From IMG/VR virus record IMGVR_UViG_2548876953_000003, positions 1 through 5,228 of that record: a stretch of DNA of 5,228 nucleotides, one strand, 5' to 3'. The stretch's first letter is position 1, and each line of letters starts with the position of its first letter. This DNA comes from a virus. Lineage: Duplodnaviria > Heunggongvirae > Uroviricota > Caudoviricetes. The notes beneath the pieces were generated by a model. The model saw only the letters and a list, made by a program, of their open reading frames with translations, did not search any database and was not told the origin of the DNA. Both the position numbers and the translations under genes were made by a program. Shown piece after piece: positions 1 through 5,228 of the stretch.

Positions 1-249
1 GCGAAAGATGCAGATACCGACGAGCATAAACATCAGCAGAACGCAGCAGCAAAGCAGTCAAAACCATCACCTACACCTGAACAGGTTCTAAAAGCATTCA
101 CTGACGCAGCATTGCAGAAAAACACCGTGGAAGAGCTTAAACAGGCGTTCGCCAAAGCGTGGAAGATGCTCGAAGGCACACCGGAGCAGCACAAAGCGCA
201 GGACGTTTACAACATCAGACGAGACGAATTAGAAGGAGCTGCTGCTTAA
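1..249 (+). CDS. 3' end of a phage gene whose start lies upstream of the window; function unknown (possibly a recombination/annealing-type partner of the downstream SSB, speculative)
   Basis: Frame 1 is open for 82 codons from the window edge (AKDADTDEHKHQQNAAAKQ...RRDELEGAAA) and ends at TAA 247-249, overlapping the next gene's ATG (TAATG). Absent from the ORF track only because it has no start in the window. Confidence 0.5.
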   Translation, partial: AKDADTDEHKHQQNAAAKQSKPSPTPEQVLKAFTDAALQKNTVEELKQAFAKAWKMLEGTPEQHKAQDVYNIRRDELEGAAA

Positions 250-632
250 TGGCACATTCGATTACTGTAAGACTAAACAAGCCCGCAAGAGAGTTTCAGA
301 CCGGGGAAAATATCGGATTCAACATCCGTGCTGGCGTTCAGTATTACGATCGCCAGACAAAAAAGAAAGAATGGACAAACTACAGCGCCGTTGTATTTGC
401 CAAGCCGGGAGCGCAAGCGGATTACTACCGTAGTGTTCTTGTTGAAGGTGGCATTGTGGAAATTACCGGAGAAAACATCAGGGTTGATGTTTATCAGGGG
501 CAAAATGGTCAATCAATCACTCTTGAATTACTGAATGCAAAGATTGGATTTGCAGCTTCAGGAAATGGCCCGCAGCAGCAAAGTAGTAACCAGCAGAACA
601 CTCCTGTATACGACGATTCCATCCCATTCTGA
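249..632 (+). CDS. Phage single-stranded DNA-binding (SSB-like) protein, 127 aa, OB-fold with host-SSB-like C-terminal tip
   Basis: ATG at 249 preceded by AAGGAG (233-238); the track's start at 159 adds an Arg-rich extension that is the out-of-frame reading of the upstream gene. The protein ends ...TPVYDDSIPF, matching the acidic C-terminal tip of E. coli SSB (DDDIPF), after a Gln/Asn-rich linker. The core (EWTNYSAVVFAK...GENIRVDVYQGQNGQ) resembles SSB OB-fold strands. Confidence 0.75.
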   Translation: MAHSITVRLNKPAREFQTGENIGFNIRAGVQYYDRQTKKKEWTNYSAVVFAKPGAQADYYRSVLVEGGIVEITGENIRVDVYQGQNGQSITLELLNAKIGFAASGNGPQQQSSNQQNTPVYDDSIPF

Positions 633-655
633 TTTAGAAAAATAAGGATTTAATT

Positions 656-949
656 ATGCCAGCGCCTCTGTATGGTGCGGATGACGCGCGCCGCTGTTCC
701 GGCAATTCCGTATCGGAGGTGCTGGATAAATTCAGAAAAAACTACGATCGGATAATGTCGCTACCGCAGGAAACGAAAGAGGAAAAGGAATTTCGCCATT
801 GTATATGGCTTGCAGAGAAAGAAGAACGCGAGCGAATTTACCAGACATCAATCCGACCATTCCGCAAAGCCACATATACCCACTTCCCTGAAATTGACCC
901 GCGCCTGCGTAATTACCGCTCACGCTATGGCGCTATCAGTAATGACTGA
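656..949 (+). CDS. Hypothetical small basic phage protein, 97 aa
   Basis: ATG 656 with AAGGA (644-648) 7 nt upstream; 23-bp gap after ssb on the same strand; stop TGA 947-949. No recognisable motif beyond scattered Cys/His. Confidence 0.6.
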
Positions 950-1120
950 GGAATTTACCATGAGAGGACTTGCATACAATCCCGGCATTCTTCCGGCAGA
1001 AATGATTATTCGCCAACGCGTAAAGCCAATGCCATCGAGAGAGTAATTGCTTAAGAGAAAGAGTTTCGGTTCTGTTAATGACAACAAATATCTGAATGCT
1101 ATGTGGCGGAGTGGGAAAAA

Positions 1121-1708
1121 ATGAAACAAATGTCACTAATTGAGATGGATGGTTTTCTGAAAGGTAAATGCATCCCACGAGATCTAAAGGTTAACGAAAC
1201 AAACGCTGAATATCTTGTCCGTAAGTTCGGTGAACTTGAATCAAAACTGGAAACGGCGTTGCGGGAGTGTCGTTCTGCTGGAATCACGATTGATAACCTT
1301 GAGGCCAAGTGCGCGGCGCTGGCAGCGGAGAGTGCGGGGATGAAGAAGTTCTGCAAAGACGCTGCATTCGATGCCGATTACGAAGCAGAGCTAGGTATGG
1401 AGCGTGGTTTATTCAGTGATGCGCTTAACGAAATCAAAACCCCAGCCACCGATGCTTTCCTGGCTGAAGTACGTGCGGAAGCACGCAACGAGGGTATTAA
1501 CTATGCCGCAAGCCGTCTTGCTGCTGCTTTCAACCACGGATTTATCAATAAGTCTTTACGTGAAGTTTTCGATGTTACGCGCATGATTCTGTCAGCGAAA
1601 GAAGAGTTGGCTAATGAACCGCATCCGATTGATGGCCTGTCTGGTGAATATGCGGAGAAATCCCTTGAAGAATGGGCGGAACAGATTCGCAAAGGAGGCA
1701 ACCAGTGA
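1121..1708 (+). CDS. Hypothetical phage protein, 195 aa, predicted helical
   Basis: ATG 1121 with GGAG (1108-1111) 9 nt upstream, preferred over the track's GTG at 1103. Stop TGA 1706-1708 overlaps the next gene's GTG start (GTGA). Family not recognised. Confidence 0.65.
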   Translation: MKQMSLIEMDGFLKGKCIPRDLKVNETNAEYLVRKFGELESKLETALRECRSAGITIDNLEAKCAALAAESAGMKKFCKDAAFDADYEAELGMERGLFSDALNEIKTPATDAFLAEVRAEARNEGINYAASRLAAAFNHGFINKSLREVFDVTRMILSAKEELANEPHPIDGLSGEYAEKSLEEWAEQIRKGGNQ

Positions 1709-2445
1709 GCAAGATTGACTATCAGGCACTGCGTGCCAAGGCAGAAAAAGCAACGTGTGGTGTATGGTCGCTCGAATATGGAGAGAGCCGATTTGATTGT
1801 GATGATGCGTTAATTCATCGTGAAGTTGTTGGATATCTTCCCATTTGCAGAATTGAAGGAGCACATCCAGAAAGCGGTTTCGATGAAGATTTCCAAATGG
1901 AACAGCAGGCCAATGCTGAATTCATCGCCGCAGCCAATCCGGCTACTGTGCTGGCATTACTGGATGAACTGGAAAGAAACCAGCAATACATCAAACGCCG
2001 CGATCAGGAGAACGAGGAAATTGCGCTAACGGTAGGGAAGCTGCGTGTTGAGCTTGAGGAAGCAAAATCAAAACTCAACGAGCAGCGTGAGTATTACGAA
2101 GGTGTTATCTCGGATGGGAGTAAACGTATTGCTGAACTGGAGAAAAGCGAAGAGCAACTCATTAACGAGCGTGACCATGCTGAGTCTGCTTTAGCTGATA
2201 TGTACTTCGCAACAACCGGGGATAGGCCTGAGTGGAGTAACTGTTTCAGTTTTTCAGATGCTGTCGATGCCGTAGTTGACAGAATTGCTGATTTAGAAGC
2301 CAAACAGCCATCGCCAGTAGTACCGGAAGAAAAACCAATGCCTAACCCTCTTAGCATGTACACAGTTGATGCTGTTGCAGCTATTGCAGAGGTGAGAGGC
2401 TGGAACGCCTGCCGTGCAGCCATGCTTAAGGGAGATAAATCATGA
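1705..2445 (+). CDS. Ead/Ea22-like family protein, 246 aa, N-terminal conserved domain plus central coiled coil
   Basis: GTG 1705 preceded by AAAGGAGG (1691-1698) at 6 nt; the track's ATG 1672 has no RBS. N-terminus SKIDYQALRAKAEKAT..W and the motif EFIAAANPATVLALLDELE match what I recall of lambdoid Ead/Ea22-like proteins; residues about 100-170 are heptad-rich. From recall, not a search. Confidence 0.7.
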   Translation: MSKIDYQALRAKAEKATCGVWSLEYGESRFDCDDALIHREVVGYLPICRIEGAHPESGFDEDFQMEQQANAEFIAAANPATVLALLDELERNQQYIKRRDQENEEIALTVGKLRVELEEAKSKLNEQREYYEGVISDGSKRIAELEKSEEQLINERDHAESALADMYFATTGDRPEWSNCFSFSDAVDAVVDRIADLEAKQPSPVVPEEKPMPNPLSMYTVDAVAAIAEVRGWNACRAAMLKGDKS

Positions 2446-2792
2446 TTAATCGAACCAAACTGGAGCACATCCTCGAGTATGCCAGGCAGCAGAGGCGCTT
2501 TGGCCAGCTTTGTAAAATTCTGCCAGGAGATATGGTTGAAATCGTGGAGATTGCCATGCGTAAGACTGGCAACTCTCCGGTAAGTCCGGGTGGTTGGATA
2601 AGCTGTAGTGAGCGAATGCCCGCTCAAGATGATTGGATTTTAATTTATTCAAAGCACGGTGAGTATATGGCAGGACAGGTACAAGAGGAATACGTGGAGT
2701 TGAGCGACGGCACTTTATCGTGGTTAGGGAACGCCTTGTACTGGATGCTGCTACCAGAACCGCCGCAGGGAGTGAATGATGAATTGGCCTGA
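2442..2792 (+). CDS. DUF551-like phage protein, 116 aa
   Basis: ATG 2442 overlaps the upstream stop (ATGA); GGAG at 2431-2434. The motifs WISCSERMP...W..YW and C-terminal WMLLPEPPQ fit the DUF551 pattern as I remember it. Confidence 0.7.
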   Translation: MINRTKLEHILEYARQQRRFGQLCKILPGDMVEIVEIAMRKTGNSPVSPGGWISCSERMPAQDDWILIYSKHGEYMAGQVQEEYVELSDGTLSWLGNALYWMLLPEPPQGVNDELA

Positions 2793-2862
2793 AGCATTCA
2801 CCGCTGTAGGAGTTGCAATCGCGGTGGCATTTATTCTGTATTCGCTTTTCCGCTGGGGATAA
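2776..2862 (+). CDS. Candidate small membrane peptide, 28 aa (MMNWPEAFTAVGVAIAVAFILYSLFRWG); single predicted transmembrane helix
   Basis: Not in the ORF track (too short). ATG 2776 and 2779, with GGGAG (2768-2772) inside the 3' end of the DUF551 gene; stop TAA 2860-2862 sits 4 nt before the next ATG. A 19-residue uncharged hydrophobic core is flanked by polar or charged ends. It exactly fills the only gap between two coupled genes. Confidence 0.35.
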   Translation: MMNWPEAFTAVGVAIAVAFILYSLFRWG

Positions 2863-2866
2863 AGGA

Positions 2867-3109
2867 ATGTTCGCTCTGATTCAACGTGGTCAGATATACA
2901 CCGATAGCGCCGGCTACCCGATAAAAATTCTTCGCTGCATAAACAACACTGTGTTGTACAGAAGAATGGATGGGCGAACACAGTCGGTAAAAATAAACGA
3001 TTTTAATGAACTGTTTGAACGGATCGATCACCAGGAATACCGACAAATTCTGGCTGAAACAGAGCAGGAGAACCATCTGAAAAAATTACGCGCCATGCAA
3101 AGGAGATAA
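2867..3109 (+). CDS. Hypothetical small phage protein, 80 aa
   Basis: ATG 2867 with GGGGA (2855-2859) 7 nt upstream; the track's start at 2813 is a TTG that overlaps the hydrophobic peptide ORF. Family not recognised. Confidence 0.55.
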   Translation: MFALIQRGQIYTDSAGYPIKILRCINNTVLYRRMDGRTQSVKINDFNELFERIDHQEYRQILAETEQENHLKKLRAMQRR

Positions 3110-3189
3110 ACCGGTAAAGGTGTTCGCGATAAAGGTGAATATCGGCAATGAATAACAATCCTCGCACTGACGGGGATTTCTTTTATCTG

Positions 3190-3214
3190 AACTCGCTACG
3201 GCGAGTTTTGTTTT
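3190..3214 (+). terminator. Weak intrinsic-terminator-like hairpin (attenuator?) immediately upstream of the zinc-ribbon gene
   Basis: Perfect 7-bp inverted repeat AACTCGC (3190-3196) / GCGAGTT (3201-3207) with 4-nt loop, then TTTTGTTTT. Only 4 of 7 pairs are GC, and it abuts the GGAG/ATG of the next gene. Confidence 0.3.
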
Positions 3215-3226
3215 ATGGAGATGATT

Positions 3227-3526
3227 ATGGCCTGTTCAACATTCAACCCTTTAACGTTACAGAAATACCAGCCAGACCCTGAAGATTTATGCTCACTGTG
3301 TGGCGGAAATCATGGTAAAGCTGCCATGATCGAATGTAAGGACAAAATCCACATATGCCTTAATTGCGTTGATGTCCTCGTTGATATCAAAAATGAAAGA
3401 GAAGATAAAAAGCGTAGCGAGGCTATTCGCGCCTTAGATTCATGGATGCGAGATGGGTATAGTGCTGCGCAAATTTATGACTTAGCCATTTCAAAAGGCG
3501 AAATACCAGGTGTGCGAATCGAATAA
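3227..3526 (+). CDS. Hypothetical Cys4 zinc-ribbon protein, 99 aa
   Basis: ATG 3227 with GGAG (3217-3220) 6 nt upstream (the track's start at 3215 lacks an RBS). Two CxxC pairs 18 residues apart (CSLCGG ... CLNCVD) indicate a zinc ribbon. Confidence 0.6.
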   Translation: MACSTFNPLTLQKYQPDPEDLCSLCGGNHGKAAMIECKDKIHICLNCVDVLVDIKNEREDKKRSEAIRALDSWMRDGYSAAQIYDLAISKGEIPGVRIE

Positions 3527-3561
3527 GAAGCGCACTCAAGCATCTTTTGGGGAAATCACAA

Positions 3562-3729
3562 ATGCACTTCCGAGTCACAGGTGAATTGAATGGAGAACCA
3601 TTCAACAGAGTTATCGAAGCAGAGGACATCAACGACTGCTATGACCACTGGATGATATGGGCGCAGATAGCACATGCAGACGTAACCAATATTCGAATTG
3701 AAGAACTGAAAGAACACCAAGCCGCCTGA
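3562..3729 (+). CDS. Hypothetical small phage protein, 55 aa
   Basis: ATG 3562 with GGGGA (3549-3553) 8 nt upstream; the track's start at 3547 is a TTG. Stop TGA 3727-3729 lies in the loop of the terminator below. Confidence 0.5.
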   Translation: MHFRVTGELNGEPFNRVIEAEDINDCYDHWMIWAQIAHADVTNIRIEELKEHQAA

Positions 3730-3744
3730 TGGCGGTTTTTTATT
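3719..3744 (+). terminator. Rho-independent terminator at the end of the early accessory gene array
   Basis: Stem AAGCCGCC (3719-3726) pairs with GGCGGTTT (3731-3738) including one G-U pair, loop TGAT, followed by a T-run TTTTTTATT (3736-3744). Confidence 0.65.
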
Positions 3745-3751
3745 GCCTGAT

Positions 3752-3767
3752 TTGCAGGTTCGATTCC
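3752..3767 (+). other. tRNA T-arm-like fragment (not an intact tRNA); matches my recollection of the argW tRNA-Arg(CCU) T-arm
   Basis: TTGCAGGTTCGATTCC contains the canonical T-loop GGTTCGATTCC, but the 3' partner of the T-stem and any acceptor stem or CCA are missing (next bases CTATTCGGAG). Lies between the terminator and the excisionase gene. Confidence 0.4.
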
Positions 3768-3786
3768 CTATTCGGAGATAGCACTC

Positions 3787-3987
3787 ATGCAACACGAACT
3801 ACAACCTGATTCACTGGTTGATTTGAAATTCATCATGGCTGATACTGGCTTTGGTAAAACCTTCATCTACGACCGGATTAAGTCCGGCGACCTGCCTAAA
3901 GCCAAAGTTATCCACGGTCGAGCAAGATGGTTATATCGTGACCATTGTGAATTCAAAAATAAGCTCTTAAGCCGCGCTAATGGGTAA
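3787..3987 (+). CDS. torI: AlpA/TorI-family excisionase (recombination directionality factor), 66 aa, winged-helix
   Basis: ATG 3787 with GGAG (3774-3777) 9 nt upstream. The sequence MQHELQPDSLVDLKFIMADTGFGKTFIYDRIKSGDLPKAKVIHGRARWLYRDHCEFKNKLLSRANG has the AlpA-family pattern and the length of KplE1 TorI. It is the last gene before the att-like junction. The symbol rests on recall and context. Confidence 0.8.
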   Translation: MQHELQPDSLVDLKFIMADTGFGKTFIYDRIKSGDLPKAKVIHGRARWLYRDHCEFKNKLLSRANG

Positions 3988-4003
3988 AATAGCGGGTAAA
4001 ATA
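3982..4003. repeat. Tandem direct repeat GGGTAAAATA-gc-GGGTAAAATA overlapping the excisionase stop codon; candidate integrase arm-type or RDF binding sites
   Basis: Two exact 10-bp copies (3982-3991 and 3994-4003) separated by 2 bp, about 60-80 bp from the putative att core. Confidence 0.45.
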
Positions 4004-4030
4004 TTTCTCACATCTAAAAAATACCATTCT

Positions 4031-4043
4031 AATCAATCCCCTG
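4031..4043. promoter_or_regulatory. IHF-like binding motif between the direct repeats and the att core
   Basis: AATCAATCCCCTG matches the IHF consensus WATCAANNNNTTR with one mismatch. Its position between arm-type repeats and core fits tyrosine-recombinase att architecture. Confidence 0.25.
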
Positions 4044-4060
4044 CCACTCTAAGTAGATGT

Positions 4061-4075
4061 CTGCAGGGGACACCA
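4061..4075 (+). other. Putative prophage attR core: a copy of the 3' end of tRNA-Arg (argW), CTGCAGGGGACACCA
   Basis: The sequence ends in ...GACACCA like a tRNA 3' terminus and equals what I recall as the last 15 nt of argW and the KplE1 att core. It is preceded by an 8-bp inverted partner TCCCCTGC (4037-4044) of GCAGGGGA (4063-4070). Phage-type genes lie to the left, chromosomal-type DNA to the right. Confidence 0.55.
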
Positions 4076-4515
4076 GATACCCTTCAAACGAAATCTACCT
4101 TCACCCCGTAAAAGATAGGTTTGGCAGCACACTTGCCTTATATCTACTCATTTTTACTGCAACAGGTTGAAATCTCAGCACTGTCAGAAAGCGCTGATGA
4201 CTAAACAGCCCTGGGCCGGGCGATGTAACCATCACACAGAATCCTGATAGCGAAATATGGCGTGACTCGATACTTCACTCCGCAATGCATTCCTTGATGA
4301 ATTCGCAGGACCGTGATACACGGGACAGGTCGCTGAATGACGACAATGTCCTGGAAATCAGCGAACCGCGCATCTGAAGTACATTTGAGCGACTGTACCA
4401 GAACATGAATGAGGCGTTTGGATTAGGTGATTATTAGCAGGGCTAAGCACTTTAGTATTATTATTTTCCGGTTGAGGGATAGGGAGATATCGACAACAAC
4501 CGGAAAAGTTTACGT

Positions 4516-5177
4516 CTATATTGCTGAAGGTACAGGCGTTTCCATAACTATTTGCTCGCGTTTTTTACTCAGGAAGAAAATGCCAAATAGCAACATCAGG
4601 CAGACAATACCCGAAATTGCGAAGAAAACTGTCTGGTAGCCTGCGTGGTCAAAGAGTATCCCAGTCGGCGTTGAAAGCAGCACAATCCCAAGCGAACTGG
4701 CAATTTGAAAACCAATCAGAAAGATCGTCGACGACAGGCGCTTATCAAAATTTGCCACGCTGTATTTGAAGACGGATATGACACAAAGTGGAACCTCAAT
4801 AGCATGTAACAGCTTCACTAATGAAATAATCCAGGGGTTAACGAACAGCGCGCAGGAAAGGATACGCAACGCCATAATCACAACACCGATAAGTAATGCA
4901 TTTTTTGGCCCTACCCGATTCACAAAGAAAGGAATAATCGCCATGCATAGCGCTTCGAGTACCACCTGGAATGAGTTGAGATAACCATACAGGCGCGTTC
5001 CTACATCGTGTGATTCGAATAAACCTGCATAAAAGACAGGAAAAAGTTGTTGATCAAAAATGTTATAGAAAGACCACGTCCCCACAATAAATATGACGAA
5101 AACCCAGAAGTTTCGATCCTTGAAAACTGCGATAAAATCCTCTTTTTTTACCCCTCCCGCATCCGCCGCTACGCACT
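4516..5177 (-). pseudogene. cscB: 3' fragment (about 220 codons) of a LacY-family (oligosaccharide:H+ symporter) permease, probably sucrose permease cscB, truncated at its 5' side by IS30
   Basis: The minus-strand frame open from 5184 down to stop 4516-4518 aligns with LacY residues about 195-417 (FKDRNFWVFVIFIVGTWSFYNIFDQQLF vs LacY [42 protein letters not shown] vs HMFEVPFLLVGCFKY). Similarity stops at 5177/5178 where IS30 begins, so no N-terminal half is present. The symbol cscB is inferred from family plus the argW-csc/dsd locus context. Confidence 0.65.
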
Positions 5178-5228
5178 TGTAGATTCAATCTGTCAATGCA
5201 ACACCCCTTTCAATTATCTCTTTCGGTG
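5178..5228 (-). mobile_element. Right end of insertion sequence IS30 (terminal inverted repeat plus 3' end of the transposase gene), continuing beyond the window
   Basis: 5178-5203 reads TGTAGATTCAATCTGTCAATGCAACA, matching the roughly 26-bp IS30 terminal inverted repeat as I recall it (TGTAGATTCAATTGGTCAACGCAACA on the other end). The minus-strand frame 5228 to 5185 encodes PKEIIERGVALTD followed by stop, matching the IS30 transposase C-terminus. Confidence 0.65.
5185..5228 (-). CDS. IS30 transposase (InsI-type), last 13 codons plus stop; the remainder lies beyond the window end
   Basis: Minus-strand translation ...PKEIIERGVALTD, stop codon complementary to 5185-5187, located inside the IS30 inverted repeat as in IS30. 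Confidence 0.55.
   Translation of the reverse strand, partial: PKEIIERGVALTD

Follow-up and report, generated by a model that had tools for sequence, protein, structure and literature searches.

A predicted IntS/TorI-type attR at the right edge of a P22-like prophage in argW

The window, which here means the entire analysed stretch of 5,228 nt (IMG/VR record IMGVR_UViG_2548876953_000003, positions 1 to 5,228), almost certainly holds the attR of an IntS/TorI integration module, left by a P22-like prophage of about 42 kb that integrated in argW and whose torI gene adjoins the junction. This is an ordinary, already known site whose biochemistry has been worked out in E. coli K-12, where the attR of KplE1 (CPS-53), extending from torI to pawZ, was characterised by Panis, Mejean and Ansaldi (PMC2951348, PMC3509656). 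Our assignment draws on sequence identity, on the recovery of all four att forms and on the match to this biochemically characterised module, from which protein binding at the individual sites is extrapolated. An earlier note, made from the letters of the sequence alone, had read the region as an attR; we support that reading and found each element where the note had placed it.

The prophage boundary and the four att forms

The features on which the argument rests are the following (window coordinates, strand, description).

3719-3744, plus strand: intrinsic terminator for the early-left (ea) operon that lies upstream; the exchangeable integration module has its left edge here
3752-3767, plus strand: 16-nt argW T-arm look-alike, TTGCAGGTTCGATTCC; identical to the argW T-arm sequence and part of the module
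3787-3987, plus strand: torI, recombination directionality factor (RDF, excisionase) and TorR inhibitor; 66 aa plus stop, 66/66 identity to PDB 1Z4H
3964-4075, plus strand: P arm and core; phage-side part of the 135-bp K-12 attR substrate, aligning with the K-12 attR with scattered substitutions mostly in the variable spacer
3982-3991, plus strand: candidate arm-type IntS site P1, GGGTAAAATA; overlaps the last codon and stop of torI; predicted binding
3994-4003, plus strand: candidate arm-type IntS site P2, GGGTAAAATA; GGGTAAAA invariant in 19/19 loci
4015-4043, plus strand: IHF-like site, an A6 tract at 4015-4020 followed by AATCAATCCCCTG at 4031-4043; 30 bp left of the core; putative IHF role
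4037-4044, plus strand: left arm of the inverted repeat, TCCCCTGC; outside the identity block
4063-4070, plus strand: right arm of the inverted repeat, GCAGGGGA; inside the core 4061-4075
4061-4075, plus strand: att core (overlap/identity block), CTGCAGGGGACACCA; the last 15 nt of tRNA-Arg(CCU) argW and counterpart of K-12 pawZ
4076-4515, no strand: bacterial flank (B' side) toward the csc sucrose locus; directly 3' of argW in empty-site genomes and unlike the K-12 flank
4516 to beyond the window, minus strand: cscB, sucrose permease, interrupted by IS30

The 15-bp tRNA-Arg core claimed by the earlier note is identical to the 3' end of argW. It is the sole match in the window even when two mismatches are allowed (0.01 expected), and in the K-12 annotation these 15 nt appear at the end of CPS-53 as pawZ, a fragment of argW. 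The published K-12 identity block is 16 nt long, CTGCAGGGGACACCAT (PMC2951348); 15 of these 16 nt are identical at 4061-4075 and the 16th base falls in the host flank. The identity is shorter here because the bacterial flank begins with G instead of T. Homology to K-12, phiv205-1, HK633 and HF4s ceases exactly at 4075, the right boundary of the prophage, in agreement with the island edge that had been proposed at about 4061-4075. On these alignments the boundary and the crossover block 4061-4075 can be regarded as established.

The attL was read not from the window's own genome, distinguished by an IS30 at 5178, but from E. coli F2_407_2_2 (NZ_CP074756.1), which has three mismatches over window positions 1-5177. 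In NZ_CP074756.1, torI is the last prophage gene, and the other end of the prophage, 42.2 kb away, consists of intS followed by tRNA-Arg(CCU). The junction there reads GGTTCGATTC-CTGCAGGGGACACCA-TTTATCAGTTCG and continues into intS, and the same 15 nt end the intact argW. The second core that the earlier note had proposed to look for beside an integrase or tRNA-Arg gene is therefore found inside argW, directly upstream of intS. As the note had also stated, no integrase adjoins the junction: none of the window's open reading frames (ORFs) is of integrase size, and no tRNA gene was detected within the window.

The attP form is contiguous in the free phage HK633, where a three-way alignment runs through torI, the window's P arm, the core, the P' arm of attL and intS. 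For attB, we joined the yfdC-argW region directly to window 4076-4235. The resulting 320-nt empty site matches many strains at 100% identity over its full length, and at least 80% of it is covered in one piece in 1415 of the 5426 complete E. coli genomes; the suggested comparison with an empty argW locus thus turned up one that continues directly into the window's right flank. Since the bacterial TTCGATTC is preserved whole in attL and the phage GTAGATGT in attR, strand exchange must have occurred within 4061-4075; a crossover in the T-loop, or midway between the arms of the inverted repeat, was rejected on the same grounds.

Several further observations concern the core and its surroundings. 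At four loci of TorI homologues the tRNA-end identity stops earlier, before the CCA end (e.g., CTGCAGGGGACA followed by ATCC beyond the break), and TGCAGGGG is the only part of the core common to all four; this may help to delimit the overlap region, or the four loci may represent secondary sites. A 43-codon ORF at 3980-4111, annotated as Sf6 gene 17-like in HK633, spans the arm sites and the core, and is probably not a real gene because its C-terminal part changes on integration. The host flank at 4076-4100 is found in more than one diverged form: the window has GATACCCTTCAAACGAAATCTACC and another E. coli has TTTATCCCTCAAGCGAAACCTCC. The TTTATC of TTTATCCCTCAAGCGAAACCTCC is also present in the P' arm of the phage, a hint of older integrations at the argW/csc hot spot. 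The last 51 bases of the window (5178-5228) are an IS30 end (TGTAGATTCAATCTGTCAATGCAAC...) inserted in cscB, and this junction at 5178 occurs in no complete E. coli genome of our collection.

Excision and the predicted protein-binding sites of the module

The protein encoded at 3787-3987 is identical in 66 of 66 residues to PDB 1Z4H, the NMR structure of the 'Tor inhibition protein', and the same gene is annotated torI (WP_001163428.1) in the near-identical genome. The RDF is thus TorI, as had been suggested, and a TorI-family RDF gene lies directly on the phage side of the junction. We found no sigma-70 promoter for torI in 3700-3790. A scan of IMG/VR aimed at more diverse relatives of TorI yielded nothing but E. 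coli copies with 100% identity.

With the K-12 sites, a 135-bp attR recombines in vitro with a 220-bp attL given IntS, TorI and IHF, and excision to attP and attB depends on these three proteins both in vitro and in vivo (PMC2951348, PMC3509656). The primer attR-IHF2, CTCTTAAGCCGCGCCAATGG (PMC3509656), matches 3964-3983 with one mismatch, which places the start of the 135-bp attR at the equivalent of 3964. On integration, strands were exchanged inside CTGCAGGGGACACCA, which placed intS and the P' arm beside the intact argW (attL) and left torI, the P arm and the 15-nt argW fragment at attR, joined to the host csc flank. Transferred to the window, the published excision reaction would proceed as follows. 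The N-terminal domain of IntS would occupy the two GGGTAAAATA arm-type sites and its catalytic domain the core; IHF would bend the DNA at about 4015-4043 (near 4028) and bring P1 and P2 alongside the core, so that one IntS could bridge arm and core. TorI, whose gene ends inside P1, would bind five GTTCG-type sites on attL and drive the attL x attR reaction, and on attL it would also repress intS.

It is improbable that the junction is a fossil, the trace of a past integration that is no longer competent for recombination. The related prophage does contain pseudogenes and a tailspike gene split by an IS3-family element, and several substitutions separate the window from the tested K-12 attR, among them six adjacent bases at 4045-4050 in the spacer of the inverted repeat. 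This stretch, however, also varies among functional phages such as HK633, and none of the changes touches an arm site, the IHF-like site or the core. Moreover, the intact torI encodes a protein identical to the active one, the annotation gives intS as a full-length CDS, and the far more decayed KplE1 still excises (PMC2951348). Because of the split tailspike gene, the phage may be non-infectious even if it is excisable.

The direct repeats that had been claimed for 3982-4003 are two exact copies of GGGTAAAATA, 12 bp apart from start to start. GGGTAAA occurs three times in the window on both strands, compared to 0.73 expected from shuffles, and is kept in nearly all of 19 loci from about ten genera. 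The P' arm has four copies of GGRTAAA at the intS promoter, and the published P' arm-type sites share TAAA and overlap this promoter (PMC2951348). The description of the repeats as arm-type holds in that both copies match the four P' arm sites, a match at the sequence level only. Published TorI sites number five and form two blocks on attL, with the motifs GTTCG, GATCG and GTCCG (PMC2951348); TorI binding has been described for attL (PMC2951348, PMC3509656). We placed all motifs on one attP map, in which zero is the first base of the core.

-79: P1, arm-type
-67: P2, arm-type
-30: IHF-like site
0 to +14: core
+20, +40, +83, +93 and +103: TorI-type sites, YRGWYCGY
+131 to +169: GGRTAAA arm-type sites of the P' arm, two direct and two inverted
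about +176: ATG of intS

The map agrees with the published layout in its five TorI sites on attL and in the P' sites that share TAAA. It bears on another reading of the window's repeats, namely that the 10-bp direct repeats are binding sites of TorI itself, as in a lambda-like attR in which RDF sites lie beside the RDF gene. Sites for RDFs are commonly direct repeats with a spacing of about one helical turn, and here the spacing is 12 bp and the repeats abut torI. We nevertheless consider this very unlikely: the published TorI motifs sit on attL, no TorI-type motif occurs between torI and the core, and the four GGRTAAA copies of the P' arm coincide exactly with the published IntS arm-type sites overlapping the intS promoter. 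Owing to the position of the published TorI sites and the match to the P' arm, we assign the two window repeats to IntS as predicted arm-type sites, not to the RDF.

The motif AATCAATCCCCTG is present at 4031-4043, as claimed, with one mismatch to the IHF consensus WATCAANNNNTTR, although by itself it is no better than chance, as eight matches of this quality were found in the window and 7.0 are expected. The case for a putative IHF site comes only from its position, the A-tract at 4015-4020 and its conservation: it is kept in K-12, phiv205-1 and HK633, and across genera ATCAA/ACAA shows partial conservation. A 2010 abstract in Virology reportedly describes a single functional IHF site, located on attR, with attL having none. 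The published in vitro reaction includes IHF (PMC2951348, PMC3509656).

Type of element and spread of the module

Upstream of the module, the window encodes erf, abc2, an ea22-like gene, DUF551 and DUF4222, and the 42.2-kb prophage of NZ_CP074756.1 carries a P22-type portal, capsid, gp4/gp10, tail needle, tailspike and ant/arc. Judged by this gene content, the element belongs with the P22-like phages of the HK620/Sf6/CUS-3 type and has the IntS/TorI module in common with KplE1. The likeness to KplE1/CPS-53 pointed out in the earlier note accordingly stands for the layout and for the 15 nt annotated as pawZ, and not for the element, which is a P22-like prophage of about 42 kb instead of a 10-kb remnant.

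That the window represents the K-12-type cryptic prophage KplE1/CPS-53, a defective remnant of 10.2 kb, is barely conceivable. Its torI, its attR and the T-arm look-alike upstream are nearly identical to K-12, and the attR aligns closely with that of KplE1 from about 3745 to 4075 before diverging. However, homology to K-12 starts only at about 3745, upstream of which K-12 has yfdP to yfdT and ypdJ in place of the window's genes; the near-identical genome has the P22-type structural genes; and the right flank carries csc in place of dsdC. KplE1 itself (10.2 kb, yfdG to yfdT between intS and torI, dsdC flank) was rejected, as gene content, size and flank all differ. A chance match to the tRNA end, with no mobile-element boundary here at all, has a negligible probability, as only the short length of the core speaks for it, against the 0.01 core matches expected, the loss of homology in four independent phage or prophage records at exactly 4075 and the empty site in 1415 genomes.

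The P22-like attR and that of KplE1 nonetheless have in common an identical TorI, the same two GGGTAAAATA copies, the IHF-like site, the inverted repeat, the core, the orientation to argW and the position of intS at the opposite end. They differ in the six spacer bases at 4045-4050 and in their setting, which is a 10-kb remnant with a dsdC flank and an identity of 16 nt for KplE1, and a full-length P22-like prophage with a csc flank and 15 nt here. The attP sites of HK620, Sf6, HK633, HF4s, phiv205-1 and CUS-3 are nearly identical to the window in P arm and core. In free HK633, torI, attP and intS form one continuous stretch in which attP separates the RDF gene from the integrase gene, whereas the window shows the integrated, split form. 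Virion types differ as well: HK633 is a siphovirus, and both the window's prophage and CUS-3 are P22-like podoviruses. The HK633 record (RefSeq NC_019719) annotates an 'attP' downstream of intS (7653-7733) by similarity to a ykgJ-yagV region; the torI-core-intS order of this phage (6150-6400) puts the argW-type attP between torI and intS instead.

As in phage lambda, a heterobivalent tyrosine integrase would act on arm-type and core-type sites with an IHF bend between them and with a small winged-helix RDF (PMC2951348). Unlike lambda, the integrase and RDF genes lie at opposite prophage ends, the target is the 3' end of a tRNA gene, and RDF sites and integrase promoter are on attL, which makes attL the complex site. 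The arrangement is thus mirrored: this attR is the simple arm, with two arm sites and one IHF-like site, while in lambda the simple arm is attL, with H' and P'1-3.

The module is highly conserved among KplE1, HK620, Sf6 and CUS-3 (PMC2951348, PMC3509656), and homologues of TorI with 58-100% identity occur in Enterobacter, Citrobacter, Serratia, Pantoea, Edwardsiella, Tatumella, Rouxiella, Dryocola and Arsenophonus. The layout after torI is kept with almost no indels over about 108 bp in nearly all of the 19 loci (about ten genera); little or no variation is seen in the GGGTAAA/GGGTAAAA of both arm sites or in GT.TG.AGGG at the core. A mosaic joint was observed at 3719-3755: as far as about 3741-3755, the window is 96-99.6% identical to Stx1a-converting phages and HK022, which beyond this point carry a lambda-type xis-int cassette in place of torI-attP-intS. 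Together with the start of K-12 homology at about 3745, this switch identifies the segment from there to the end of intS as an exchangeable integration module. Rfam returned sub-threshold hits only, STnc130 with 24.3 bits (gathering threshold 55) and STnc420 with 17.9 (gathering threshold 70), both due to the terminator hairpin at the left edge.

tRNA-like accessory elements and significance of the junction

The earlier note had described an imperfectly symmetric core at 4037-4075. Its symmetry is real and consists of an 8-bp inverted repeat, with arms complementary at 8/8 positions and an 18-nt spacer; the crossover core is confined to 4061-4075, and the left arm takes no part in the crossover because it lies outside the identity block. 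This arm overlaps the 3' half of the IHF-like motif, and the repeat flanks a T-loop-like spacer. The arms change together with the tRNA end, as in Rouxiella (CCCCCTACA...TGTAGGGG) and Edwardsiella (TCCCTGCA...TGCAGGGA). Three pairs are altered on both sides, and 77.5% of the cells are paired, compared to at most 54.5% when the partner is slid; the covariation score is reached in 3 of 500 shuffles. Folded as RNA, the repeat is predicted to form a hairpin with a minimum free energy of -16.7 kcal/mol (z = -2.5). This pattern suggests that the left arm at 4037-4044 could serve as an extra core-type contact of IntS or as an mRNA 3' hairpin.

The second element, the T-arm look-alike at 3752-3767, ends 20 nt upstream of the torI start and is conserved in K-12, HK633 and phiv205-1. 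In Enterobacter, Citrobacter, Serratia, Pantoea and Edwardsiella, GGTTCGATT(C/T)C is located at a near-fixed distance from the ATG, and the position of the GGTTCGATTCC core of the look-alike is held in several genera although the flanks have diverged. In Enterobacter, Edwardsiella and Pantoea stewartii, GTTCG/GTCCG, the published TorI-site motif, occurs once more 12 bp downstream (counterpart region in the window, 3771-3775). The look-alike is possibly an auto-operator of TorI, an extra core-type (B-like) site of IntS or a hairpin of the torI leader RNA.

We also considered a 'split tRNA', in which torI would have been inserted into a longer phage copy of the argW 3' half, given that 3752-3767 and 4061-4075 together almost rebuild this half. 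This is unlikely, since the P arm in other genera has its own T-loop-like TTCGATGT left of the core. With TTCGATGT already directly beside the core, the look-alike is a second copy and not the missing half. In the CUS-3 record (GenBank CP000711), the att 'core' is this look-alike (4259-4274 / 1-16), and the record ends about 309 bp before the torI-distal core and is without torI, because the look-alike was taken as the 'attR core'; the boundary of the CUS-3 prophage looks to be mis-set.

The junction sets the right edge of the 42-kb prophage at 4075 and indicates that the IntS/TorI excision module of the strain, located at the argW hot spot beside the csc sucrose genes, is apparently intact. 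This is of use for annotation and for predicting prophage mobility. The junction adds nothing new to the understanding of site-specific recombination; what stands apart is the pair of conserved accessory elements, namely the look-alike of the T-arm and the inverted repeat with its co-varying arms. It is a tentative proposal, and somewhat doubtful at present, that the module carries in 3752-3767 and 4037-4044 two selected DNA elements that mimic the tRNA beyond the crossover core. If this were true, either of them would represent an added regulatory layer in a model excision system.
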